DNA of 64,000 bases from an uncultured Anaerolineaceae bacterium (GCA_964502095.1 CAZCUF010000011.1:10459-74458); one strand, 5' to 3'. Shown: positions 39,236 through 63,018, counted from the first letter of the stretch. Translations and numbers: made by a program. The notes: generated from the letters alone by a model not told the origin.

Positions 39236-41038
39236 ATGAAACCCTTACTTCGTCTTCGCGGCTTCTTGAAGCCGTATGCCTGGCAAATTGCCGCCAACCT
39301 CGCCTGCCTCTTCCTGGCCACCGGCTTGTCGTTGATTATTCCGCAGATCATCGAGCAAATCGTTGACGACGGCCTGATTAAAGGCGAAGTTCAATATTTA
39401 ATTCGTTCCGCCGTCATTCTCCTCCTGCTGGGTCTGGTCACCGCGCTTCTCAATTTGGGACAACGTTATCTTTCAGAATGGACCGCGGCGCGCATTGGAT
39501 ACGATCTTCGTAATGCCATGTACGACCGCATTCAGTATCTTACTTTTACCTATCACGATCACGCCCAGACCGGCCAACTGATCTCGCGCTGTATCGAAGA
39601 TGTGCGCGCCATACAAAATTTCGCGGGCGACGGCATCCTTCAGATCGTTCAACTGCTTTTCATGTCGGTTGGCGTAATTACGCTTCTGGTGCTCGCCAAC
39701 CCGATGCTGGCTCTTATTTCACTTCTGCCGTTAATTCCGATGATCATGATGACGGCCGATTTTGGGAACAGGGCGACGCGCCTGTTCTACAACGTGGACT
39801 TGACGCTCGGCGACCTGTCTTCGCGCTTGCAGGAGAACGTCTCCGGCGTTCAAGTGGTACGCGCCTTTGCGCGTGAACCGTACGAGATCGACCGTTTTGA
39901 AAAAGCCAACCGCCAGTACTTCGATTCGCGCATCAAGGTTATGAGCGAGTGGGCGAAAGTAATGCCCACCACAAACCTTCTGATCACGCTTGGGACGATT
40001 CTGATTCTGATCTTCGGCGGTCAGCTGGTTTTGCAGGGCCGGATGACAGTTGGCGAACTTGTGGCTTTCAATTCTTATGTGCTTATGCTCTCGGCGCCGG
40101 TGCAACAGATCGCGTGGATGGTCAATGGCGCGGGCGAAGCCGCGGCGGGCGCGCAACGTGTGCTGGAGATCATCGAAACGGAACCGGAGATCGAGTCGCC
40201 GCCGGATGCGGTCACGCTTCCGCCTTTGACGGGACGCGTCGTCTTCCAGCACGTCTCGCTTCGCTATCTCGACGAAAAATCGGTTGCCCTTTCGGATATT
40301 GACCTCGACGTTCAGCCGAATCAGATCGTTGCGCTTATCGGGCAAACCGGCTCGGGAAAGACCTCGCTCGTCAACCTGATCCCCCGCTTTTACGATGTGA
40401 TGGACGGCGCGGTGCTGGTGGATGGCATGGATGTTCGGAAGGTGGATTTGATTTCACTGCGCAAGCAGATTGGCATCGTCCTACAAACTTCATTGCTGTT
40501 TTCGGATACGATCAAGGCCAATATCGCGTATGGGAGGCCCAAGGCCAGCGACGATGATGTGGTCGCGGCGGCCAGGGCCGCGCAGGCGCATGAATTTATC
40601 CGCGGCTTTCCAAAAGGCTACGACACAATTGTTGGCGAACGCGGCGTGACGCTTTCCGGCGGCCAGCGCCAGCGCGTGGCGATTGCGCGCGCGTTGTTGA
40701 TGAATCCGCGCATTCTTATTCTGGACGATTCAACCTCCTCAGTCGATACGCAGACCGAGAAATTAATTCAGGAGGCGCTCGACCGCCTGATGGAAGGCCG
40801 CACTACTTTTGTGATCGCCCATCGCCTGTCCACGGTGCGCCGCGCGGATTTGATCCTCGTCATGGACAATGGCCGCATTGTCCAGCGCGGCAGGCACGAG
40901 GAACTTTTGGCGCAAGGCGGCCTGTATCGCGAAATTCACGATTTGCAACTCAATCAAAACCGCGCCTTCATGGATACTCTCGAGGAGATCAAACCCGCTG
41001 AAACCGCGCGCCCCTCTGTCGATCGTTCGCTTTCATAA
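39236..41038 (+). CDS. ABC exporter, fused TMD-NBD half-transporter (MdlA/type IV exporter-like)
   Basis: 6-TM domain + GQTGSGKTS Walker [16 protein letters not shown] signature, ILILDDSTSSVD Walker B. Confidence 0.85.
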   Translation: MKPLLRLRGFLKPYAWQIAANLACLFLATGLSLIIPQIIEQIVDDGLIKGEVQYLIRSAVILLLLGLVTALLNLGQRYLSEWTAARIGYDLRNAMYDRIQYLTFTYHDHAQTGQLISRCIEDVRAIQNFAGDGILQIVQLLFMSVGVITLLVLANPMLALISLLPLIPMIMMTADFGNRATRLFYNVDLTLGDLSSRLQENVSGVQVVRAFAREPYEIDRFEKANRQYFDSRIKVMSEWAKVMPTTNLLITLGTILILIFGGQLVLQGRMTVGELVAFNSYVLMLSAPVQQIAWMVNGAGEAAAGAQRVLEIIETEPEIESPPDAVTLPPLTGRVVFQHVSLRYLDEKSVALSDIDLDVQPNQIVALIGQTGSGKTSLVNLIPRFYDVMDGAVLVDGMDVRKVDLISLRKQIGIVLQTSLLFSDTIKANIAYGRPKASDDDVVAAARAAQAHEFIRGFPKGYDTIVGERGVTLSGGQRQRVAIARALLMNPRILILDDSTSSVDTQTEKLIQEALDRLMEGRTTFVIAHRLSTVRRADLILVMDNGRIVQRGRHEELLAQGGLYREIHDLQLNQNRAFMDTLEEIKPAETARPSVDRSLS

Positions 41039-41044
41039 TATGCA

Positions 41045-42847
41045 GTGATCATGACTCACACAATTACACCACCCGCCTACGTAACTCAATCTGAAGAACT
41101 CTACGATAAAGGCTATGATCCTAAAGTCGCGCGGCGGCTGTTCGGATACGCGCGGCCTTACTCGGGTCAATTGCTCATTGCCGCTGTTCTGATGTTTCTG
41201 GCTTCTGCCGCGGCGGTGGCCGGGCCTTATTTCGTAAAGGTTGCCATTGACAGCGGCCTGACCGCCAAAAATTACGATGCGTTACGATACACGGTGCTGG
41301 CTTATCTTGGCGCCGCCGTCGTGCAATGGGTTTCCACGTACTTCCGCGTGAATATCATGTCCTGGGTGGGGCAGGCGGTTATTTACGATCTGCGAACTGT
41401 CCTTTTTCAACATCTGCAACAACTTTCTTTGAGTTTTTACAGCCGCTATTCGGTCGGACGCGTCATCACGCGCGTCATCAACGATGTGGAGATTTTGCGC
41501 GACTTTCTGACCTGGGCTGTGCTGGCCGTTACGCGCGATTTATTCACGCTGATCATGATCATCATTGTGATGCTCACCATGAATGTCCGCCTCGCGCTTC
41601 TGACCTTTAGCGTGCTTCCGTTTATGGTGCTGGCGACTCTGCTCTTTCGGCGTTTCTCGCGCGCGGCCTATCGTAAAGTGCGCGCCGCGATCTCGTGGGT
41701 GAATTCGGTTCTGGCGGAGAATGTCAACGGCGTGCGCGTGGTACAGGCGTTCTCGCGCCAAATCTATAATTACAATAATTTTGCCGAATATGTAAATCGG
41801 TATCACCTCGAGCGCGCCATTGACGCGGCGCGCATTGCTTCGTTCTTCAGCCCGGTGGTGGACGTGCTCGGCGCGGTTGCCACTGCGCTGGTTGTGTGGG
41901 TTGGGGGAACGGCAGTATTGGGAGAGCAGATTACGGCGGGAGTGCTGGTCGCGTTCATTCTTTACATTGACCGATTCTTCGATCCCATCCGCGACCTGAG
42001 CCGCCGTTTCGACGCATTGCAATCCACTATGGCGGGCGGAGAGCGCATTCTGGCCCTGCTCGATACCGATGTGGATGTGCAGGATGCGCCTGACGCGCGC
42101 GACCTGCCTGTCATCAAGGGTGAAGTTCAGTTCGACCATGTGTCTTTCCATTACTCGGATGATCCTCAGCCGGTATTGACGGACATTGACTTGCGCGTAC
42201 ATCCCGGCGAGACCGTCGCCTTGGTCGGTGAAACCGGCGCGGGCAAAACTACGATCGTCAAATTACTCTCGCGTTTTCATGACCCAACCGTCGGCCGCGT
42301 GCTGGTGGATGGTCACGATCTGCGTGAAGTCACGCAGGCCAGTTTGCGCCGTCAGATGGGAATTGTGTTACAGGATCCGTTTCTATTCAACGGTTCGGTG
42401 CAGGAGAACATTTTGTTCGGTCGTTTGAGCGCGAACGACGGAGATGTGATCGCCGCGGCGCAGGCGGTAGGCGCGCACGAGTTTATTGTCCGCTTGAAAA
42501 ACGGATACAACACCTCGGTCGAGGAAGGAGGCGTGTTGTTGTCCGTCGGCCAGCGGCAATTGCTGTCATTTGCGCGCGCTTTATTGGCGGATCCGCGCAT
42601 CCTGATTCTCGACGAAGCTACCTCCAGCGTAGATACACAGACCGAGCAAATCATCCAACGCGCGCTGGCGCGGCTATTGAAGGGGCGGACCGCGTTCGTG
42701 ATCGCGCATCGCCTGTCTACCATTACGAGCGCCGATCGGATTGTTGTGATCGTGGGCGGGCGGATCGTGGAGCATGGAACACACGCGGAATTGCTGGAAA
42801 ATAGGGGAACGTATTACGAGTTGTATCGCACGGGATTTCAGGAATGA
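41045..42847 (+). CDS. ABC exporter, fused TMD-NBD half-transporter (partner subunit)
   Basis: GETGAGKTT Walker A, LSVGQRQLLSFARAL signature, ILILDEATSSVD Walker B. It lies 6 nt after the previous gene, so a heterodimer is likely. The start is GTG 41045 or ATG 41051. Confidence 0.85.
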   Translation: MIMTHTITPPAYVTQSEELYDKGYDPKVARRLFGYARPYSGQLLIAAVLMFLASAAAVAGPYFVKVAIDSGLTAKNYDALRYTVLAYLGAAVVQWVSTYFRVNIMSWVGQAVIYDLRTVLFQHLQQLSLSFYSRYSVGRVITRVINDVEILRDFLTWAVLAVTRDLFTLIMIIIVMLTMNVRLALLTFSVLPFMVLATLLFRRFSRAAYRKVRAAISWVNSVLAENVNGVRVVQAFSRQIYNYNNFAEYVNRYHLERAIDAARIASFFSPVVDVLGAVATALVVWVGGTAVLGEQITAGVLVAFILYIDRFFDPIRDLSRRFDALQSTMAGGERILALLDTDVDVQDAPDARDLPVIKGEVQFDHVSFHYSDDPQPVLTDIDLRVHPGETVALVGETGAGKTTIVKLLSRFHDPTVGRVLVDGHDLREVTQASLRRQMGIVLQDPFLFNGSVQENILFGRLSANDGDVIAAAQAVGAHEFIVRLKNGYNTSVEEGGVLLSVGQRQLLSFARALLADPRILILDEATSSVDTQTEQIIQRALARLLKGRTAFVIAHRLSTITSADRIVVIVGGRIVEHGTHAELLENRGTYYELYRTGFQE

Positions 42848-42886: not shown

Positions 42887-42915
42887 TTGCCTTACCCTGC
42901 CGATTTCCGTATACT
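42887..42915 (+). promoter_or_regulatory. Candidate sigma70 promoter (TTGCCT-17-TATACT) for the small-protein/NLR pair
   Basis: TTGCCT 42887-42892, a 17-nt spacer, TATACT 42910-42915. GGAGAGAG Shine-Dalgarno before ATG 42959. Confidence 0.45.
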
Positions 42916-42958
42916 ATTAAAGTTCTTTTAGCCTTATTTAACCGAATCGGAGAGAGCT

Positions 42959-43405
42959 ATGGATCCAATTACATTGGCCGCGTCTGTCACGACCCTGCTT
43001 GCGCCGTATCTTGCCAAGGCGGGAAAGGTATTGGCCGATAAGGCCGCCGAACAACTGCCCGGAGCAGTTGGCGCGTTGTGGGACAAAATTTCCCAAAGGT
43101 TCCAGTCCAAGCCTGCCGCGCAGGATGCGGTCGTAGATCTGGTGCAAAATCCGAGCGATCAGGATAATCAGGCCGCGTTCGAAACTCAACTGCGGAAGAT
43201 GTTGAAGGATGACCCCGCCTTCCTGAAAGAATTATCCGATTTGACCGACAAGGCTCAACAGGAAACGATCAGGTTGCAGGGCAGTGGCGCGGTTGCGACG
43301 AATGGCGGTGTTGCGGCCGGGCAGGGCGGTGTGGCCGTCGGCGGAAACGTGCAAGGCAACATCGTGGTTGGCAACAATAATAAAGTTTCGAATAAACCGA
43401 AATAG
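42959..43405 (+). CDS. Small helical protein with a C-terminal G/N/V-rich beta-solenoid/amyloid-like motif (candidate Bell/HeLo-like effector)
   Basis: 148 aa. Hydrophobic N-terminal helix MDPITLAASVTTLLAPYLAKAG, then charged helical region to about aa 105. aa 106-143 read GSGAVATNGGVAAGQGGVAVGGNVQGNIVVGNNNKV. The motif recurs at the N-terminus of the next gene. Confidence 0.5.
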   Translation: MDPITLAASVTTLLAPYLAKAGKVLADKAAEQLPGAVGALWDKISQRFQSKPAAQDAVVDLVQNPSDQDNQAAFETQLRKMLKDDPAFLKELSDLTDKAQQETIRLQGSGAVATNGGVAAGQGGVAVGGNVQGNIVVGNNNKVSNKPK

Positions 43406-43417
43406 CTGTTCATCTGC

Positions 43418-43447
43418 CGCCCTGCCCTAAATCAGCAGGGCGCTTTT
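43418..43447 (+). terminator. Weak intrinsic-terminator-like hairpin between the small gene and the NLR gene
   Basis: 8-bp stem CGCCCTGC / GCAGGGCG, a 9-nt loop, then CTTTT. It ends 8 nt before ATG 43455. Confidence 0.4.
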
Positions 43448-43454
43448 ATTTCCT

Positions 43455-45833
43455 ATGGCAACTGTCAATGTGCAAGGTAACGTCGAAGGCAATATCGTCG
43501 TCGGCGATAATAACTTTGTAGTTAATACAAATTACGGCACGGTTGTATATAAGCAGGCCGAGCCGCGCGTTCAGGCGCGGAGTCTTTCACCCAAGGCGCC
43601 GCGCAGACCGCGCGGTTTTATCGGACGCAAAGCCGAGCTGGAGAAACTGGAAAGCTGGATTGCCGCTTCCGACCCGATCCTCCTGCACGGCATGGACGGT
43701 ATGGGGAAGACCACGCTTGTCAAGCAGGCCGCTAACGGCGCCGCCGCGACTTCACAGCCCAATGGAGTTGTCTATCTCGAAGGCGTAGATGAAACCGGGC
43801 AGATGCTCGGCTTTGGGGATATTGTTCAACGCCTCTTCGATGCGTTGTTCGAGTCCGACCCTGCGCTCAAGGTGGACCTGACGACTGCGCGTACATATTT
43901 GAGCAATGTGCGCGCTTTGGTACTGCTCAACTCACTGACCCTCACAGACGACAATCTGCAAAAATTACTGGATCTGTTTCCGTCCGCGCCGATTCTGATC
44001 GCGGCCGAAGCCGGTTCGCGCCTCGACGCATTTCAGGACCTTTCGCTTTCACCGATGCCGCGTGCCGATGCGCTGGCTTTGTTCTTCGACCGCGCCGAAT
44101 TGAAATTGGATGACGCCAACCAGGTTCCTGCCGATCGGATCGCTCAATTGCTGGATGATGTACCTGCCGCGCTGGCGATCGTTGCGAATGTGATCCGCGA
44201 AAAGGGACTCAAGCTGATAGACGTGCTGGACCAATTGCGCACCGCGGCCGCCTCCTCGAAAGAAGCTGGGCGCGCCGCGCTCGAACGCGCCTGGGCTTTG
44301 ATGTGGAATCAATTATCCGAGGATGAGCGCGGCATGATGACCATGTCCGCCGCGGCCTTCGGCGTTTCTGTAGATCGAAAATGGCTGGAGGGCCTGGCGG
44401 GCGGAAAAGCTGTCAGCGGAAAATTAGAGTCGATGGAACTGTTGCAGGCTAATAGTCCGCGCCTGAGGCTGATGCCCGGCATGCGCGCCATGATGCTCGA
44501 CCGCGTAAATCTTCAGTCGGCGCGCGAGCGCTGGCTGGAAGAAATGTCTTCCGCCATGGACGAACGATGGGACGATTTCGATTTCGTGGGGGATGAGCTG
44601 GGAAATTTAATTGGGTTGATCGAATGGTGCGCGGCCAACCGTAATTGGGCCAAGGTGATTTCGCTGGGACGAAAGCTCGACCCGTATCTTACCCTGCACG
44701 GCTTGTGGGATGTATGGCAGAGATTGCTCGGTCGTTTGTTGGAGGCCGCGCGCGCCTCAAAGGATCATTTATCGGAAGGCTGGGCTTTGCATCAGTTGGG
44801 TACGCGGGCTTTGGGAATGAACGACGCGCACACGGCCCGCAATTTTTTGCAACAGGCTTGTGTGGTGCGCCGCGCCGCCAAAGATGAAGTTGGGCTGGCC
44901 TATAGCCAGCATAACCTGGGATTACTTGGGCCGGTTGCCGTTGCAAGGCCCGCAACCGTAAAGCGCGGATGGTTCGCGTGGCTGGTCGGCGGATTGGTGA
45001 CCGCCGCGGCGCTGGGAGGGACGCTCCTCGGCGGCGCGGGAGCTATGCTCTTGAATCTGCTTTCGCCGCCCAGCGCGACCCCCACATTGACGGTCACTTG
45101 GACGCCAAGCTCAACGCATACACCGACTTTTACCGCCTCGGTGACTGCCTCAGCGACTCCTTCGCTCACCGCCTCGCCGACATCTACTGTGACGTTCACG
45201 CCAACGATGACAGACACCCCAACCGTTACGCCAACTCCGGTTTACACAATTTTACGCGGCACCGTGATTGACGATGTGGCTTGTTATTATGGGCCGGGCC
45301 GTATGTATTTGTATAAATATGGTCTCAAGCAAGGCGCGAATTTGAGTGTGCTGGGGATCAACCAAAACACCGCTGGCACATGGCTGTTAGTGGGGAACAC
45401 ATTCACTCTTTCCACGCGGCTATCGAATCCGTGTTGGGTGAGTTTGAAGAGCATGGATGTGGATGGAGATCTCGCCGGGCTCTTCCCGGCTTATCCTGAT
45501 CAAACGCCTTTGCCGAAATCGCCGCTTTACCCGCCGCCGATGAACGTGATTGCCATCCGTAGCAAGGATCAGGTGACGATCACCTGGGATTACACCACCC
45601 CACTCCCGCCGGGTATGCGCGGAGATCACAGCACCAAGAGCCCGCTTTGGCTGGTCGAATTGTGGACGTGCCAGAAGGGCCGGCTGGTATTCACACCGAT
45701 TGGCGCTTACGATTCGACAGTGATAATTACGGACGAGCCGGGCTGTTCCGAGGCGTCGCATGGGCGCGTGTATCTGGTCGACTCCGATGGCTACGATGGC
45801 CCATCTGCGATCAAGTGGCCGGGGTTCCAATAG
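43455..45833 (+). CDS. NB-ARC-type STAND NTPase with N-terminal G/N/V motif, short helical repeats, a TM helix, a PT linker and an extracytoplasmic SH3b-like C-terminal domain
   Basis: MATVNVQGNVEGNIVVGDNNFVVNTNYG N-terminus. FIGRKAELEKL...LLHGMDGMGKTTLVKQAA P-loop. PILIAAE (RNBS-B-like). DVPAALAIVA (GxPLA-like). TM WFAWLVGGLVTAAALGGTLLGGAGAMLLNLL at aa 506-536. PT-rich aa 537-596. The C-terminal 196 aa contain 4 Cys. Confidence 0.7.
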   Translation: MATVNVQGNVEGNIVVGDNNFVVNTNYGTVVYKQAEPRVQARSLSPKAPRRPRGFIGRKAELEKLESWIAASDPILLHGMDGMGKTTLVKQAANGAAATSQPNGVVYLEGVDETGQMLGFGDIVQRLFDALFESDPALKVDLTTARTYLSNVRALVLLNSLTLTDDNLQKLLDLFPSAPILIAAEAGSRLDAFQDLSLSPMPRADALALFFDRAELKLDDANQVPADRIAQLLDDVPAALAIVANVIREKGLKLIDVLDQLRTAAASSKEAGRAALERAWALMWNQLSEDERGMMTMSAAAFGVSVDRKWLEGLAGGKAVSGKLESMELLQANSPRLRLMPGMRAMMLDRVNLQSARERWLEEMSSAMDERWDDFDFVGDELGNLIGLIEWCAANRNWAKVISLGRKLDPYLTLHGLWDVWQRLLGRLLEAARASKDHLSEGWALHQLGTRALGMNDAHTARNFLQQACVVRRAAKDEVGLAYSQHNLGLLGPVAVARPATVKRGWFAWLVGGLVTAAALGGTLLGGAGAMLLNLLSPPSATPTLTVTWTPSSTHTPTFTASVTASATPSLTASPTSTVTFTPTMTDTPTVTPTPVYTILRGTVIDDVACYYGPGRMYLYKYGLKQGANLSVLGINQNTAGTWLLVGNTFTLSTRLSNPCWVSLKSMDVDGDLAGLFPAYPDQTPLPKSPLYPPPMNVIAIRSKDQVTITWDYTTPLPPGMRGDHSTKSPLWLVELWTCQKGRLVFTPIGAYDSTVIITDEPGCSEASHGRVYLVDSDGYDGPSAIKWPGFQ

Positions 45834-46130
45834 GAATCCCGCGCTCGCTGTATTTCAAGTTTTCACGATAAAATCGAAGCGTTTGATCATTGCGAGCCAA
45901 ATCGTCTTTGCGATTTTGGCGCTTTGTAATTTTGTGCGAATCGAATAAGAGAGTGTTAAGTCCGTATCGTCCCTCTTCGGATACGCGGATTTCTCGGAAG
46001 TCATGGGAAAAAAGACGGAATCATAAACGGCTTGCCGCAGAAGCCAGTGAGCCTCGTGTTGTTCGTGCTTAAAACCCGAAGTTGAGAGATGCCCTCCATG
46101 GAAAATTGCCGCCTGTTCATGAACACCGCC

Positions 46131-48638
46131 ATGCGAAAAATATTCTTGACGATAATCGTTTTTCCCTTTCTTGCCGCCTGCCAGCCTCAGGCAGTTCCGA
46201 CTCCCGTGCCGACCACAGTTGCCGCCGGTCCGAGCTCGCCTTTGGATGGAAATTGGAACGCACAAGGGCAGGATTCGAACGGGTTGAAGTTCGAGATCAA
46301 TTTCATTGTGCGCGCTGAAAAACTGGCGGGGTTTTCGTACAACTTTATCGGCACCGATGGAATTCCCTGTTATTCCTTTCAATTCGTAAACATGCCTCCC
46401 GAACGACAAATTGCGATTCAATCGAATCGAGCCGCCGCCTCATTGGGATCGGACTCCCTCGAAATTGTTTTTACAAACGATCAATCTGCTTCGGGCCGCA
46501 GTGAAATCCATTGGCATGAACGTAATCCGCGCTGTAACGGCGATTATGATGTGACTTGGAGCGCGGTCAGGCAGGCGGCCCCTGTTGCGCAGGCGACCCA
46601 ATCCACTCAGCCGCCGCAATCTCAGGCCCCGCATCCATTCCAGACCCTGATCCAGATTCTGGTCTTTGGCCTCTCCAACGGCGCAGTACTGGCGCTGAAT
46701 GCCATCGGCGTGACCCTGATCTACAGTACGGTGCGCGTGCTGAATCTTGCGCATGGCGATGTTTTCGCGTTGACGACCGCCCTGGTCACCTCGTTGATTA
46801 ACTTTATCGGCGTACAGCGAAGCTGGCCGCCGTTACAAATCGCAGGAATTCTGTTAATGGCTTTGTGCGCGGCCATGGTTTTGGGCGCACTCCTTAGCAT
46901 GGGCGTTGACCAATTCGGATTCAGGCCCTTCCGCGGCGCGTCCCAGCTTGCGCCGTTGATCGCCACTTTGGGCATTTCATTTATTCTGTATCAGGGGTCG
47001 CTGATCTGGCGCACATTTCAGGGATCGTGGATTCCGGGCGAGCATCGCAGTGTGCCGGGCTTGCCGGAAGTGCCCACCGACGGCATCCCAAATCTTTTGC
47101 CTGAAATCAATCTGGCGGCGAAACTGGGCTTCTCGAATCTTGTGATTCGCTTCAGCGACGTGTTTGTCCTGTTCATGGCTATCGCGTTCGTGCTATTGGC
47201 CATCTGGTTCCTCAAAAAGACTTATACGGGCCGCGCGATCCGCGCTTTGGCGCAGAATCAGGAACTGGCGCAGATTCTCGGCATCAACATCAATGCCGCG
47301 ATTCGAAATGCCTTTGCTGTCGGCGGGGCCTTTGCGGGCGCGGCCGCCTTTATCTTTGCGCTGTATTATTCGCGTCCGTTCGGCGCGGCCGGCGCGCAAA
47401 GCGGCTTGATCGCTTTCGCGGCCGCGCTGTTGGGCGGCATTGGCTCACCGGTTGGCGCACTGCTGAGCGGGTTGACCATGGGCGTTTTCTCCTCGCTTAG
47501 CGATTACTATCTCAGCGCGCAATGGACGCCGTTTTTTGTTTTGGCATTGCTGGTGATCCTGCTTGCCTGGCGGCCAACGGGCCTCGCCTCTGTGGAAGGC
47601 GCGGAAACGGAATCCGCTTCCACGCGCGATTCGGTCATTTTAACGGCGGCTAATTCGGGGTCCCGAACGAATCGCTGGCTGGTCATCCTGCTGATTGCTT
47701 TGGGCGCGTTTCCTATTCTTTCGGGCTGGTTTCATTGGGGCGGGCAGATCATCCTGCGCACGGTGGAAGTTTTTATTTTGCTGGCGTTGGGTTTGAATCT
47801 GGCGCTGGGTTTGGCGGGCTTGCTGGATTTCGGCTTCGCGGCCAGTTTTGGGTTAGGCGCCTATGCGGGCGCATTATTGAGTCATTATGATGCTGTGGTG
47901 GCCTTGTTGGTGGGCGCGGGCGCGGCAAGTCTGCTTGGATGGCTCAAAGGCGGCCTGGCGTTTCGTTTGCGAGGAGATTTTTTGGCAGTGGCCACCCTCG
48001 CGCTGGGACTCATGGTGCGGCAGGCGGCGATCAACTTGCACGACCTGACGGGCGGGGCGGGCGGCTTTGGCGGTTTCCCTGCGCCTCATTTCCTGGACTT
48101 TAGCCTGGCAGACCCGACGATCAAGTTTTATCTCGTCTTTGTGTTTGTTGTGCTTATCTCGCTGGCGAGTCAGCGTTTGATGCGCTCGCGCACGGGCCGC
48201 GCTTGGGTGGCCTCCAGCGAAGACGAATCTGCCGCACAAGCCTCCGGTGTGAATGTGGGCCGGGAACGTATGTGGGCTTTGATCTTCAGTTCCGCTCTGG
48301 CAGGGTTGGCCGGTGCGCTGTACGCGGGAACGTTTTCGTATGTGGACCCTGAGACGATGTCGTTTCAAACCACTTCCTTGATTCTGACGATGGTGATTCT
48401 CGGCGGGGCGGGGAATGTGCCCGGCCTGTTGATCGGCGCGGCGGCCATTGTGCTGTACGATAAAGTTTTCGTGACCAAAGTGGCCGATCTGGTCGCGCTG
48501 ATCTGGCCGCATAATCTTAGTATCGGAAATATCGGCTCCGCGCCGGATATTCGCGGGGCGAGCTTCTTCAATTTTGGAATTGCTTTGTATTTGACGGTGC
48601 TTCTCAGGGCGCGCAGAAGAAAAGAACGGCGTGAGTGA
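46131..48638 (+). CDS. Fused LivH-like + LivM-like branched-chain-amino-acid-type ABC permease with an N-terminal lipoprotein head domain
   Basis: Lipobox MRKIFLTIIVFPFLAAC. About 150-aa Cys-containing soluble domain. LivH-like (LVFGLSNGAVLALNAIGVTLIYS...LAHGD). LivM-like (ALGLNLALGLAGLLDFGFAASFGLGAY). Start chosen at ATG 46131. Confidence 0.75.
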   Translation: MRKIFLTIIVFPFLAACQPQAVPTPVPTTVAAGPSSPLDGNWNAQGQDSNGLKFEINFIVRAEKLAGFSYNFIGTDGIPCYSFQFVNMPPERQIAIQSNRAAASLGSDSLEIVFTNDQSASGRSEIHWHERNPRCNGDYDVTWSAVRQAAPVAQATQSTQPPQSQAPHPFQTLIQILVFGLSNGAVLALNAIGVTLIYSTVRVLNLAHGDVFALTTALVTSLINFIGVQRSWPPLQIAGILLMALCAAMVLGALLSMGVDQFGFRPFRGASQLAPLIATLGISFILYQGSLIWRTFQGSWIPGEHRSVPGLPEVPTDGIPNLLPEINLAAKLGFSNLVIRFSDVFVLFMAIAFVLLAIWFLKKTYTGRAIRALAQNQELAQILGININAAIRNAFAVGGAFAGAAAFIFALYYSRPFGAAGAQSGLIAFAAALLGGIGSPVGALLSGLTMGVFSSLSDYYLSAQWTPFFVLALLVILLAWRPTGLASVEGAETESASTRDSVILTAANSGSRTNRWLVILLIALGAFPILSGWFHWGGQIILRTVEVFILLALGLNLALGLAGLLDFGFAASFGLGAYAGALLSHYDAVVALLVGAGAASLLGWLKGGLAFRLRGDFLAVATLALGLMVRQAAINLHDLTGGAGGFGGFPAPHFLDFSLADPTIKFYLVFVFVVLISLASQRLMRSRTGRAWVASSEDESAAQASGVNVGRERMWALIFSSALAGLAGALYAGTFSYVDPETMSFQTTSLILTMVILGGAGNVPGLLIGAAAIVLYDKVFVTKVADLVALIWPHNLSIGNIGSAPDIRGASFFNFGIALYLTVLLRARRRKERRE

Positions 48639-59627: not shown

Positions 59628-60887
59628 ATGAGTGAAACTACCGAATCGACAGAATCCACACAAACTTCTGTCTCGTTTTTCGACCGGCCGAACGTCAACC
59701 GGACGACGATTCCCGTGAGCAAGGGAGTTCCATTTGGATTTGAGAAAGTCTCGAATTCCGCTTTGGGAATCGGCGGCGCGTACGGAACCTGGGGGATGAG
59801 CTACGATAACCTGTCTTTGCCGGGATTGGTCGAGCACCGCATGGGCGCGCCGCTGGATAAAAGCGATTTGATGAGCCTGGGCGACCTTGGCTTTGTAAGC
59901 CGGCATCATACTCCGGACATGGAAGACAACGAGCATCTTGAGTTGGAAACCCAGGTGGGCGCGCGTCTTTTGCGGGCGGCCGCCGAAGCCAACGGCTGGA
60001 ACATCGAAGATGTGGAGGCGGTTTTGATCGGCATGAGCGGGCCGATCGCCACCGACTACGTCGAGAGAATTGCGCGGCGGGCCGGCGTCTCTGAAAGCGC
60101 GTTGAAGGTCAGTGTGCACAAGGCCTGTGACGGTTCGGTGGGCAGTTTGAATCTGGCGATGAATCCGGGGTTGGGAATTCCGGGCAAGTTGAATGTGGCT
60201 GAAGAACTGCAGGGCAGGAAAGTCCTGCTGGGCGGCATCGAAGGGTTGAGCCGCTTCACCCAGCACTCGCACGATAAGAATGCACTCCAGTTATTCGGGA
60301 ACGGCGCGGGGATCATCGGTGTGGTGCCGGGCGAATCGATGAAATTCATCACCGGTAAGACGCACGAGAATTTCGACGAAGACGGTGTGCTGGCTGTGCG
60401 CATGTACTACCCGCATTCCGGCGAGCGGATTCCGGGACATTCCCTGGTGGAAATCTCGCAAAACGGACAATCCATCCGCGTGGCCGGGCTGATGCACGAA
60501 CCGGAAGACGGCGCGCCGATCGAAATGGCCGGGCCGATGGGCATGGTGAAATTGTTCGTCCGAACCGGCGTGCAGGTGGTGGCCGACGTCTATGAGGCCT
60601 ACCAGAACATGATGGCCAAACTGGGACAGCCCACGCAGATCGCAGTGGCCATCGTACATCATGCCAATTACAAGATCAACAAGCTCAAGGAAAAACACCT
60701 TGCGAATCTGGGCATCCGATTCCCTATGCCGTGGGTGATGAACGATTTCGGGAACGTCAGCGCGGCCAGCAATATGATCGCGTTCCTGCGTGAACTGCCG
60801 AAGATGAGACCGGGCCAGCATATTCTGTTCGACGGTTTCGGCGCAGGCACTTATTACGACGTGCTGGCTGTCGCCCTGGGCGGATAG
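59628..60887 (+). CDS. Thiolase-fold condensing enzyme, KAS III (FabH)/type III PKS-like, orphan
   Basis: Candidate Cys-His-Asn triad: HKACDGSVGSL, VHHANYKIN, NDFGNVSAAS. GGAG Shine-Dalgarno before the ATG. No ACP or other fab/PKS genes nearby. Confidence 0.65.
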   Translation: MSETTESTESTQTSVSFFDRPNVNRTTIPVSKGVPFGFEKVSNSALGIGGAYGTWGMSYDNLSLPGLVEHRMGAPLDKSDLMSLGDLGFVSRHHTPDMEDNEHLELETQVGARLLRAAAEANGWNIEDVEAVLIGMSGPIATDYVERIARRAGVSESALKVSVHKACDGSVGSLNLAMNPGLGIPGKLNVAEELQGRKVLLGGIEGLSRFTQHSHDKNALQLFGNGAGIIGVVPGESMKFITGKTHENFDEDGVLAVRMYYPHSGERIPGHSLVEISQNGQSIRVAGLMHEPEDGAPIEMAGPMGMVKLFVRTGVQVVADVYEAYQNMMAKLGQPTQIAVAIVHHANYKINKLKEKHLANLGIRFPMPWVMNDFGNVSAASNMIAFLRELPKMRPGQHILFDGFGAGTYYDVLAVALGG

Positions 60888-61089: not shown

Positions 61090-63018
61090 ATGGCAAAGAA
61101 AGACAAATCGTCGGCTCCGCCCAAATCCGTTCACGCGGAAAACGGCGGCACTGGCATTGGCGGGAATGTTGTTAATTCCACGATCATCGCGGGCGATGGC
61201 AATACTGTAATCCAGCAAGCTCCTCCGCCGCCAGAGACTCACGACACCATCGGTTTCATCCCTCCCGCCAAAGCGGAGACGTATGTGCATCGCGGCAAGA
61301 TCGAAGAGGATGTGATCGCCCATATCCGCAAGGGAAATGCGGGAGCGATCGTTGGCGTCCACGCCCCGGGCGGACTTGGAAAAACCGAGCTCGCAAAGCA
61401 AGCCGCAGAAAAGTTGAAATCCGAATACGAAGTCCTGTGGGTGGACGTGGGCAAAAAGGAGCCGCGCCAATTACTCAGCGAGATTATGGGAAAGTGCGGC
61501 GTGCAAATTCAGCCGACCGATTCGGATGAACGGTTGAAGAACGAACTTCACCACGTCTATCTTTCCAGAAAAATATTCCTGATTCTCGATGATGTGCGCG
61601 AGGAATCGTTGAACCAGCTGGCGGAAATCCTGCCGCCCAGCCCCTGCGCCGCGCTGGTGACCAGCCGCATCCAGGACATTGGCGGCGTAAAAAACTTTGC
61701 GCTGGATGCGATGGATTGGAATCAAGCCCGCCAGTTATTCGAAGCGGTCCTGGGCGAAGCGGTTGTTGCGCCCGAACTCGATACGGTGAAAACGCTTGCT
61801 GAACGGTGCAAATTCAACCCGCTCGCCATGGAGATCGCCGCGCGGCGCATCCGCCAATTCGAAGGGACGCGTAAACCTGTGGCGCGCTATTTCGAGATCG
61901 CGCAAACCAGATTCTCGGAATTAAAAATGACCGGCGACGCTCGCTGGGATATGGACAAGGTCTTCGACATCAGCTATTTGGATTTGAGCGCGGAAGACCA
62001 GCAGAAATTCCAAAAGTTATCGGCGTTTCACCCGACGGGCTTTTCCGTGGAAGCGGTCGCCTTTCTTTGGAACGACGACATCCCGCTGGCGCGGAATCTG
62101 CTTTCGCGCTTCATCAACCTGTCGCTTGTAAAAATCGTCGAGATGGATTTGGAACGCTATCGCCTGCACGATCTGTTGGATGAGTTCACAACCCCGAAAC
62201 TCAAAGCCAGCGGAAAGTACAATGAGACAAAAACCGCGCTGGCGCAATGGCTGGTGAATTTATTCGGCGAACACTACACTGCGGATATCAGCACGGCTCC
62301 TCATGTTGCCGTTGAACGGGATAATTTACTCCACGCCTGCGAGTGGGCGAGGGGAGAAAAACAAGCGGAGGTTCTTGCCCTGCTGACGACCAAGCCTTGG
62401 AACTGGTTTTACAATATCTTTAGAGATTCATGGGGGCAATGGTTTGCCTGGCTCGAAGCCTCCTTGCAATTGGGTATTGAAGATAAGCAATTAAAAGCCA
62501 ACGTGCGAAAAGCGATGGGCGATGTGCAACAGTTCCGCGCTGAGCGAGATGCCGCGCTCGACAGTTACAACGAAGCCTTGAAACTCTTCCGTCAGGTCGG
62601 GGATAAATTGGGCGAAGCCAACGTGCGAAAAGCGATGGGCGATGTGCAACAGTTCCGCGCTGAGCGAGATGCCGCGCTCGACAGTTACAACGAAGCCTTG
62701 AAACTCTTCCGTCAGGTCGGGGATAAATTGGGCGAAGCCAACGTAATGGCAGCTAAAAGTCGAATGTCCATTCGCGCAGGCGAGATCGAAAACGCCGAAA
62801 AGCAATTAACAGAGATCATTCAAACGAGAAGACTGATAGGCGATCTTTACGGCGAGGGCGCTGACTATGGAAATTTTGCCATCGCTCTACTAGAGAGTGG
62901 ATATCGGGAAAAGGCAAGAGAGTACGCGCTCAAAGCGCGTCTGATTTTTGAGCAAATAAAACTGCCTGCCATTGTAGAGATGATGGATCGGGTTATTTCG
63001 GCGAGCCAAGAAGAATAA
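61090..63018 (+). CDS. NB-ARC-type STAND NTPase with N-terminal G/N/V/I motif and C-terminal TPR sensor
   Basis: ENGGTGIGGNVVNSTIIAGDGNTVIQQ N-terminus. VGVHAPGGLGKTELAKQAA P-loop. KIFLILDDV Walker B. ALVTSR (RNBS-B). FNPLAMEIAA (GxPLA-like). 40-aa TPR-like repeats at the C-terminus. Confidence 0.75.
   Translation: MAKKDKSSAPPKSVHAENGGTGIGGNVVNSTIIAGDGNTVIQQAPPPPETHDTIGFIPPAKAETYVHRGKIEEDVIAHIRKGNAGAIVGVHAPGGLGKTELAKQAAEKLKSEYEVLWVDVGKKEPRQLLSEIMGKCGVQIQPTDSDERLKNELHHVYLSRKIFLILDDVREESLNQLAEILPPSPCAALVTSRIQDIGGVKNFALDAMDWNQARQLFEAVLGEAVVAPELDTVKTLAERCKFNPLAMEIAARRIRQFEGTRKPVARYFEIAQTRFSELKMTGDARWDMDKVFDISYLDLSAEDQQKFQKLSAFHPTGFSVEAVAFLWNDDIPLARNLLSRFINLSLVKIVEMDLERYRLHDLLDEFTTPKLKASGKYNETKTALAQWLVNLFGEHYTADISTAPHVAVERDNLLHACEWARGEKQAEVLALLTTKPWNWFYNIFRDSWGQWFAWLEASLQLGIEDKQLKANVRKAMGDVQQFRAERDAALDSYNEALKLFRQVGDKLGEANVRKAMGDVQQFRAERDAALDSYNEALKLFRQVGDKLGEANVMAAKSRMSIRAGEIENAEKQLTEIIQTRRLIGDLYGEGADYGNFAIALLESGYREKAREYALKARLIFEQIKLPAIVEMMDRVISASQEE
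62495..62744 (+). repeat. Perfect 120-bp tandem direct duplication (2 full copies + 10 nt of a third) inside the TPR region
   Basis: 62495-62614 and 62615-62734 read identically base for base, and the identity runs on through AAGCCAACGT. Each copy encodes ANVRKAMGDVQQFRAERDAALDSYNEALKLFRQVGDKLGE. Confidence 0.95.

Follow-up and report, generated by a model that had tools for sequence, protein, structure and literature searches.

The gene pair

The window analyzed here is a 64,000-nucleotide (nt) stretch of DNA from an uncultured Anaerolineaceae bacterium (GCA_964502095.1 CAZCUF010000011.1:10459-74458), and the element of interest occupies positions 42,887 to 45,833, counted from its first letter. 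It consists of two collinear plus-strand open reading frames (ORFs), here called ORF A and ORF B, with a spacing of 49 nt. A preliminary description of this DNA had reported an ORF of 148 amino acids (aa) at 42959-43405 and a second one 49 nt on, and both lie exactly there. ORF A begins with MDPITLAASVTTLLAPYLAKAG and ends with GSGAVATNGGVAAGQGGVAVGGNVQGNIVVGNNNKVSNKPK, and ORF B begins with MATVNVQGNVEGNIVVGDNNFVVNTNYG. The ATG at 43455 is the earliest possible start past the upstream stop codon, and the motif discussed below therefore lies at the extreme N-terminus of ORF B. We consider it probable that the pair encodes a small Bell-like effector and a partner of the NOD-like receptor (NLR) type, coupled by a shared motif of the BASS6 class. 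The features of the two genes are as follows.

42959-43405, + strand: ORF A, 148 aa, Bell-like helical effector domain and BASS6-type C-terminal tail (ORF translation)
42959-43273, + strand: Bell-like domain, ORF A aa 1-105, with hydrophobic helix 1 (MDPITLAASVTTLLAPYLAKAG)
43280-43393, + strand: BASS6-type tail of ORF A, aa 108-145, GSGAVATNGGVAAGQGGVAVGGNVQGNIVVGNNNKVSN (BASS6 profile)
43331-43393, + strand: core common to ORF A and ORF B, ORF A aa 125-145
43455-45833, + strand: ORF B, 792 aa, NLR-like STAND NTPase, predicted to span the membrane
43464-43541, + strand: N-terminal motif of ORF B, aa 4-29, VNVQGNVEGNIVVGDNNFVVNTNYGT (probable second half of BASS6 plus an extension)
43617-44264, + strand: STAND P-loop NTPase, ORF B aa 55-270 (Pfam AAA_16)
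43689-43715, + strand: Walker A, GMDGMGKTT, ORF B aa 79-87
43890-43940, + strand: Walker B position, ALVLLNS, no acidic residue, ORF B aa ~150-165
44265-44966, + strand: helical/TPR-like region, ORF B aa 271-504 (TPR_12)
44967-45062, + strand: predicted transmembrane segment, WFAWLVGGLVTAAALGGTLLGGAGAMLLNLL, ORF B aa 505-536, after KR (Kyte-Doolittle)
45063-45242, + strand: Thr/Pro/Ser-rich linker, ORF B aa 537-596 (22 T, 11 P, and 9 S in 60 residues)
45243-45830, + strand: all-beta domain, probably extracytoplasmic, ORF B aa 597-792 (Cys 610, 660, 739, 764)

A shared motif of the BASS6 type

The motif common to the C-terminus of ORF A and the N-terminus of ORF B, which had been noticed in the preliminary description, withstands statistical scrutiny. 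The ORF A tail was compared with the N-terminal 60 residues of every ORF in the window that encodes 100 aa or more (123 in all). The N-terminus of ORF B ranked first (1/123), with a Smith-Waterman score of 70 for its residues 1-32; the best unrelated N-terminus scored 27. Residues 125-145 of ORF A align to residues 4-24 of ORF B with 15/21 residues identical, and the score of 70 was reached by 0/5000 composition-preserving shuffles of the ORF B peptide (mean 28.3, standard deviation 5.5, z 7.6). Therefore, the likeness between the two proteins exceeds that expected from shared low complexity.

Whether the motif belongs to a described BASS family or to a new one had been left as a question, and it can now be answered. 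Sequences of the BASS classes were taken from the supplement of PMC8086366, in which class C09 corresponds to BASS6, and a profile built in this analysis from 55 published BASS6 sequences (not the authors' own hidden Markov model [HMM]) was run on every stop-to-stop segment of the window that reached 50 aa, 683 in total. The ORF A tail ranks first (1/683) at 24.4 bits and E 6e-7. The profile also matches the effector tails at nearly all related loci (12-46 bits), and it scores 8-14 bits on the NLR-side N-termini of ORF B orthologues. Published Chloroflexi BASS6 entries, SGAIAQGPGAVAAGERGVAIGGDARGNIIITGDRNKVR and SGAIAQGPGAVAAGERGVAIGGGVSGSVIVTGDQNTVV, are close to the ORF A tail, SGAVATNGGVAAGQGGVAVGGNVQGNIVVGNNNKVS (PMC8086366 supplement). 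Composition agrees with what is described for the class (~25-38 residues, rich in G/N/Q/V/I and poor in K/P/L), as aa 108-144 of ORF A hold 11 G, 8 V, 6 N, and 5 A among 37 residues, with no P, no L, and one K; the tail is conserved in all homologues, and its consensus among them is GSGAVATxGGVAAGQGGVAVGGNVxGNIVxGNNNT. Judged by these matches, the effector motif belongs to the described family BASS6. The ORF B motif would, by the same comparison, be a half-BASS6 with its own extension, FVVNTN-GTI-YKQ.

ORF A as a Bell-like effector

We found 57 homologues of ORF A, none of them named and most from Chloroflexi/Anaerolineales assemblies; in an alignment of 38 of these, M1 and D2 are invariant. 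The AlphaFold2 model, computed with the homologue alignment, has six helices over aa 3-108 (block pLDDT 62-89), consistent with the hydrophobic N-terminal helix and helical body reported earlier, and aa 106-148 are disordered (pLDDT <50). Both the size of 148 aa and the all-helical N-domain of ~100 aa fit the published picture of Bell effectors as short proteins (~120-140 aa), and the hydrophobic first helix with Asp at position 2 fits the expectation of an acidic residue at position 2 or 3. The M1-D2 start also agrees with the Bell and "MEPIS" N-terminal signature (10.1101/2020.01.06.895854; 10.1101/2024.11.07.622273).

More direct evidence comes from sequence searches. An HMM of the ORF A N-domain, with the tail removed, was searched against a database of ~700 sequences (the query was this HMM, not the authors' Bell HMM) and matches fragments from the Dyrka et al. 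Bell set in the PMC8086366 supplement, BAY13571.1 (E 1.4e-13) and the archaeal AKB28314.1 (E 4e-8). A tblastn search finds a plasmid protein of Aulosira laxa (BAZ78632.1, E 1e-6), the tail of which, AKLVNVSVIASGNNSVATSGSVSGIINTGDNNTNVMG, is the published BASS6 entry A0A1Z4UHD6; in Aulosira laxa this protein is followed by a large protein with the same motif. A HMMER scan with ORF A residues 1-105 gives 950 representative clusters at E<=1e-3, mostly of 130-160 aa and starting M[DE]. Among the best 147 newly retrieved representatives, 124 are <=200 aa in length, 4 are the N-termini of proteins of 598-1222 aa, and 116/147 start M[DE]. This distribution of sizes and positions is, as far as these matches go, that described for Bell domains, and the same searches indicate that the N-domain of ORF A is homologous to published Bell-set proteins.

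At two related loci (L005:2187-3251 and L008:3365-4426), ORFs of 354 aa encode in-frame fusions of TIR_2 (Pfam E 9e-19) with a Bell-like domain plus BASS-type tail, and no NLR lies directly downstream.

ORF B as a predicted membrane-spanning STAND protein

ORF B has the architecture expected of an NLR, a STAND nucleotide-binding and oligomerization domain (NOD) followed by TPR-like repeats. Pfam AAA_16 matches it above the cut-off (E 2.5e-9, 38.3 bits versus 32.6), and NACHT and nSTAND6 match below their cut-offs. Among 11 orthologues, matches at E<=0.01 are to AAA_16 in 11/11, to NB-ARC in 8/11, and to TPR_12 in 10/11. A profile of the orthologues searched against the Protein Data Bank (PDB) finds TPR proteins such as LGN/GPSM2 (E 2.4e-7) and, at an indecisive E 0.01-0.03, Apaf-1 and AfsR; the sequence of ORF B alone retrieves generic P-loop matches only.

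The protein also crosses the membrane, according to prediction. The Kyte-Doolittle mean over 19 residues reaches the maximum of the whole protein (1.76) within aa 505-536. The C-terminal domain beyond the linker is modeled with confidence (AlphaFold2 mean pLDDT 90.4) as all-beta, comprising a first beta subdomain with no fold match and a second half that resembles an FN3 sandwich. Matches of this outer domain to FN3 structures in the PDB and in viral models are at E ~1e-3 (probability 1.0), and Foldseek against the viral models gives generic FN3 likeness only; no Pfam family matches the domain. Outside this family it occurs in lipoprotein-like secreted proteins. Its listed homologues are mostly of 237-304 aa, and 45 of the 76 that reach 230 aa start with a signal peptide that ends in a lipobox-like Cys and leads into a T/P linker. 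These signals are strong, if indirect, evidence that the domain acts outside the cytoplasm, and we conclude that the C-terminal domain of ORF B is probably extracytoplasmic. The preliminary description, which had called the partner an NLR, did not recognize the predicted membrane-spanning form or the outer domain.

This form is widespread. At least 206 clusters (90% identity), mostly from Anaerolineales assemblies, are related to the cytoplasmic part of ORF B. Of 114 full-length relatives, all have the membrane segment near aa 500-520 (114/114), 106 have an outer domain like that of ORF B, 99 match a regular expression for the N-terminal motif, and in 96 the membrane segment leads into a stretch rich in T/P/S. 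A DUF3298-like or FGE-sulfatase-type domain takes the place of the outer domain in some relatives. Two relatives (P0248 and P0258) carry a precomputed PF03781 match at the C-terminus. At another locus (L014:3474-6781), the Bell-like protein has a BASS6-like tail, and the protein after it (945 aa) has the motif behind a coiled N-terminus and ends in a putative FGE-sulfatase-like C-terminus.

Conservation of the pair across loci

Searches of genomes and metagenomes, together with look-ups of exact proteins, yielded 15 orthologous pairs, mostly in Anaerolineales/Chloroflexi assemblies; the closest relatives are Anaerolineales/Chloroflexi metagenome-assembled genomes. In all 15 the Bell gene is followed by the NLR gene on the same strand, with a gap of -4 to +59 nt, and in all 15 the NLR N-terminus reads V.V.GNVEGSIVVGDNNFVVNTN.GTI.YKQ. 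The motif is thus kept by both partners at every one of these loci, where a loss in one of them would have spoken against a functional link. It is nearly invariant at the N-terminus in the 11 aligned ORF B orthologues, and where an orthologous effector has a longer tail, its motif is also longer and mirrors that of the NLR in full (GNVQGNIVLGNNATTLGNNSGTININ versus GNVEGSIVFGDNNFVVNTNNGTIVYK). One locus (L028) is syntenic with the window, with ABC exporters upstream, and three others (L030, L031, and L033) are not. Since genomic contexts differ between loci, the two genes appear to move as a unit.

At one further locus (L029:3546-5904), the NLR orthologue is broken into ORFs of 388 and 403 aa beside an IS110-family transposase, and guanylate-cyclase/AAA_22 and TPR genes lie upstream.

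A second NLR in the window

The preliminary description named a single NLR partner; another gene of this kind, also carrying the motif, was not recognized there.

61090-63018, + strand: second NLR, NB-ARC and TPR, 642 aa, ~15 kb downstream of the ORF B stop
61126-61215, + strand: BASS6-like N-terminus of the second NLR, aa 13-42, VHAENGGTGIGGNVVNSTIIAGDGNTVIQQ

The N-terminus of this protein ranks second among all segments of the window in the BASS6 profile search (9.5 bits, E 0.029) and second (2/123) against the ORF A tail, with a Smith-Waterman score of 53 that 4/5000 shuffles reach. Pfam assigns it to NB-ARC (1.2e-16; 61.1 bits, a member) and TPR_12 (1.4e-10), and no Bell gene adjoins it. 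Comparable arrangements exist elsewhere. At L003:1-1671 (minus strand), a homologue of the second NLR lies beside an orthologous Bell/NLR pair, and the N-terminal sequence of this homologue, QSGSGAVATKKGIAAGAGGVA, corresponds to the first half of the Bell tail; at L035:520-3489, two NLR paralogues, each with the GNVEGSIVVGDNNFVVNTN motif, stand in tandem after a single Bell gene. These layouts make it plausible that one effector serves several NLRs, and the second NLR is probably a candidate second sensor for ORF A that would feed into the same effector.

The first of the tandem paralogues at L035 has a DUF3298-like outer domain in place of the FN3-like one, and a stand-alone membrane protein with a C-terminal domain of the ORF B type (L003:1908-2948, plus strand) lies beside the homologue of the second NLR at L003. 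Within the TPR region of the second NLR, positions 62495-62744 hold a tandem duplication of 120 bp without mismatch (2.1 copies, 100% identity), which doubles one 40-residue TPR unit and suggests that repeats were gained recently in what is presumed to be the sensor region. Upstream of this gene, at 59628-60887, is a candidate ketosynthase or type III polyketide synthase.

Expression signals and neighboring genes

Two features of the pair may bear on its expression.

42887-42915, + strand: promoter-like site TTGCCT-17 nt-TATACT, upstream of ORF A (consensus scan, 9/12 matches)
43418-43452, + strand: terminator-like hairpin between ORF A and ORF B, with an 8-bp G+C-rich stem, a 9-nt loop, and then CUUUUAUUUC (U-run) (consensus scan)

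The promoter-like site begins at 42887, the coordinate from which the preliminary description started, and is weak evidence alone, as the region has 4 such sites against 2.2 expected. GGAGAG lies 4 nt upstream of the ORF A ATG. The hairpin has a predicted RNA folding energy of -15.4 kcal/mol (z -2.39), with 4/200 shuffles as stable. It may hold NLR expression below the level of the effector. The hairpin lacks conservation, as the genes of other pairs adjoin or overlap.

Directly upstream of ORF A are two adjacent 600-aa ABC exporter genes (39236-42847, plus strand); they are syntenic in L028, where the orthologues are assigned to ABC_membrane and ABC_tran. The 849-aa ORF at 46089-48638 (plus strand) is a candidate LivH/LivM-type branched-chain amino-acid permease fusion that has ~190 additional aa at its N-terminus. 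G+C content is flat over 36-52 kb of the window, and relatives on plasmids are two only, both distant. We considered whether the pair lies on a mobile or foreign island and ruled this out on the basis of the flat G+C, the distant plasmid relatives, and the lack of relatives in phage records.

Relation to described systems

The closest described systems are the Bell/BASS6-NLR pairs of Dyrka et al. 2020 (10.1101/2020.01.06.895854; PMC8086366), a kind of module known from filamentous bacteria. The likeness includes the BASS6-type C-terminal tail on the effector, the collinear adjacent STAND-TPR gene that opens with the motif, and the Chloroflexi host lineage (10.1101/2020.01.06.895854). By homology, the feature falls within this described system of Bell effector, BASS6 tail, and NLR partner, and the earlier suggestion of a Bell/BASS-NLR-type pair is to that extent borne out (matches to the Bell set, a BASS6 tail, and the same arrangement at 15/15 loci). 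ORF B differs from the published partners in that it falls below the Pfam NB-ARC cut-off and has no Walker B acid, has a transmembrane helix and a probably extracytoplasmic domain, and apparently carries the second half of BASS6 only, plus the FVVNTN-GTI-YKQ extension. What is new relative to the described Bell/BASS6 pairs is this large Anaerolineales clade of predicted membrane-spanning, Walker-B-degenerate STAND partners with exchangeable outer domains. The published screen needed NB-ARC or NACHT neighbors (10.1101/2020.01.06.895854), and the clade of ORF B may therefore have been missed. Transmembrane NLRs are not mentioned in the Bell/BASS literature that we searched.

The Bab/Agp system of Escherichia coli (BASS11), which acts in abortive infection (10.1101/2024.11.07.622273), likewise has a small helical effector with a "MEPIS"-like N-terminal helix and a C-terminal amyloid motif, beside a sensor that opens with the same motif, and its activation leads to cell death. 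Its "Babybell" domain is shorter (~80 aa), the motif is BASS11, and the system is prophage-borne in a defence hotspot. The Bab/Agp sensor has a TPR-GreA/B-C-PIN architecture, whereas ORF B has no GreA/B or PIN match in Pfam.

Fungal HET-S/NWD2 and HeLo/HELL signalosomes follow the same logic, in which the N-terminal motif of an NLR templates the C-terminal prion-forming region of a neighboring membrane-targeting helical effector. In contrast, ORF A has no HeLo or HeLo-like match (no Pfam match at E<=1), the fungal HRAM motif consists of two pseudorepeats, and the fungal NLRs are cytoplasmic NACHT-WD proteins of eukaryotic hosts. A more distant relation is to PF20701 (HetE-N). Two distant homologues of ORF A (P0056 and P0057) pass the cut-off of this model and an HMM of the ORF A-family N-domain reaches the N-domains of PF20701-labeled proteins (E ~1e-5), but ORF A and its close relatives do not match the model. 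A literature search on PF20701/HetE-N and transmembrane bacterial NLRs found nothing directly relevant. In its layout ORF B also resembles the GAP1-N2 GTPase systems (Kaur et al. 2020, PMC7159879), in which a cytoplasmic NTPase switch is followed, toward the C-terminus, by a transmembrane segment and an adhesion-type domain outside the cell, and which occur in multicellular prokaryotes (PMC7159879). They differ in that the switch is a GTPase, not a STAND protein, and in having no amyloid motif and no Bell effector.

Proposed function and alternatives

We propose that ORF A and ORF B are, and work like, a Bell/BASS signalling pair, and we put the probability of this at about 0.75. By analogy with related systems, the module would most likely serve regulated cell death. 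ORF A would be the executioner, a Bell-like helical domain of ~105 residues with its hydrophobic helix 1 (MDPITLAAS...) held in the bundle and with a flexible BASS6-type tail. ORF B would be both sensor and switch, with the motif, STAND NTPase, and TPR-like helices on the cytoplasmic side, and with one transmembrane helix and a Thr/Pro linker leading to an all-beta, partly FN3-like domain outside the membrane. A cue would drive oligomerization of ORF B, gathering its N-terminal motifs into a cross-beta nucleus; this nucleus would template the ORF A tail, and folding of the tail would free helix 1, which would then enter the membrane and cause permeabilization and cell death. Beyond the shared BASS6-type motif, we infer these steps from BASS1/BASS3, Bab/Agp, and fungal HET-S. 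The experimental tests in the main text of 10.1101/2020.01.06.895854 concern BASS1 and BASS3 only.

Several observations weigh against this proposal. ORF A belongs to no Pfam, NCBIfam, or PADLOC family (the sole line in those scans, hemophore-related, has E 0.0096 and is far under the cut-off), and Foldseek finds no significant neighbor of its model in the PDB (best E 0.74), so that the model provides no connection with the crystal structure of Bab. The N-terminus of ORF B ranks third in the BASS6 profile search and is weak (7.6 bits, E 0.11), matching profile positions 16-32 (the second half) only. Pfam NB-ARC (PF00931) scores 18.2 bits on ORF B, below its cut-off of 23.5, so that of the "P-loop/NB-ARC module" in the preliminary description the P-loop STAND NTPase stands and NB-ARC does not, except at the superfamily level. 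TPR_12, at aa 423-469 (E 1.3e-4), is also below the Pfam cut-off. The acid of Walker B is absent, as ORF B reads LVLLNS where the second NLR (61090) reads LILDDV. The two proteins are alignable in this region (BLASTP of ORF B against the NB-ARC of the second NLR, E 3e-5, with LILDD aligned to LVLLN), and an acidic residue occupies the position in 0/11 aligned orthologues; VLLNSI is commonest in the family, and VLLDNL is a minority. The nucleotide cycle may therefore differ from that of canonical NLRs. Degenerate ATPase motifs are reported for some Avs proteins (PMC13581612). Pair-specific co-variation of the motif, which the preliminary description had suggested as a check, is weak (cognate mean 65.6 versus non-cognate 63.4, permutation p 0.037, uncorrected for relatedness). 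Given this slight difference, the evidence from orthologous loci is conservation in both partners and not co-evolution. Finally, the neighbors in the window and at related loci are transporters and housekeeping genes with no defence island, and the phage records searched hold no relative.

The weak co-variation would also fit a motif that is a docking tag rather than an amyloid. The tail and the N-terminus would then pair by beta-strand addition and hold the effector on the membrane-bound NLR (for inhibition or co-localization), and activation would come by release, with no templating. The strong conservation of the motif on both sides fits this idea, and simple recruitment could suffice because ORF B is itself membrane-anchored. 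We nevertheless consider it unlikely. BASS6 was defined alongside fibril- and prion-forming classes, of which BASS1 and BASS3 were tested, and BASS11 of Bab/Agp acts in vivo (10.1101/2020.01.06.895854; 10.1101/2024.11.07.622273). Moreover, the tail is G/N/V-rich and free of Pro and Leu, has the ~7-residue G-x-V/A-A periodicity typical of beta-arch stacks, and is disordered in the monomer model. Far less probable still is that ORF A is a Gly-rich secreted peptide of the bacteriocin or microcin kind, exported by the two ABC transporters immediately upstream, with an incidental low-complexity likeness to ORF B. The adjacency of these exporters, which are also the neighbors in L028, and the Gly-rich tail might suggest as much, but the likeness survives composition-preserving shuffling, the motif is kept in 15 pairs, most of them without ABC neighbors, and the N-terminus of ORF A, homologous to Bell proteins, shows no evident leader or double-glycine signal. 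On the strength of the shuffling, the other pairs, and the Bell homology, we rejected this candidate.

An alternative of a different kind accepts the machinery and changes its purpose. Anaerolineae are filamentous, and the pair might act as a cell-death switch for envelope or surface surveillance, kin recognition, or development, triggered via the outer domain of ORF B and not directed at phages. The membrane segment in every full-length relative and the probably extracytoplasmic domain in nearly all of them are consistent with such a role, as is the replacement of the outer domain by DUF3298-like or FGE-sulfatase-type domains in some; the locus itself is chromosomal, syntenic, of uniform G+C, and outside defence islands, with no PADLOC matches. 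Against this, the only Bell-like system tested in vivo, Bab/Agp, acts in abortive infection (10.1101/2024.11.07.622273), immune receptors, too, typically exchange their C-terminal sensor domains and have tandem NLR paralogues, and the cytoplasmic TPR region could be the true sensor. We regard a purpose other than antiphage defence as a real possibility that is nonetheless doubtful on present evidence.

Returning to the Bell/BASS signalling pair, we offer tentatively, and as a speculative extension of it, that the relatives of ORF B (at least 200 clusters at 90% identity, mostly Anaerolineales) could be described as "transmembrane NLRs." The outer domain would sense a surface or envelope cue (e.g., phage adsorption, wall damage, or a neighboring cell) and signal to a hydrolysis-deficient STAND module, the clustering of which would nucleate the amyloid that fires the Bell pore-former. 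Screens for NB-ARC/NACHT would have missed this clade, and the second, cytoplasmic NLR would converge on the same effector.

Implications

If none of these possibilities holds, the locus is one more BASS6 pair in Chloroflexi. Divergent STAND partners such as ORF B can escape screens keyed to Pfam NB-ARC or NACHT, and the locus points to a network in which one effector is linked to several NLRs. NLR-type receptors are defined as intracellular sensors, yet here a large conserved clade anchors a putative amyloid-signalling NLR in the membrane. The exchangeable outer domain provides a concrete handle on the trigger of Bell/BASS-associated NLRs, and if it proves to be the sensor, the reach of amyloid signalling would include the sensing of surface cues.

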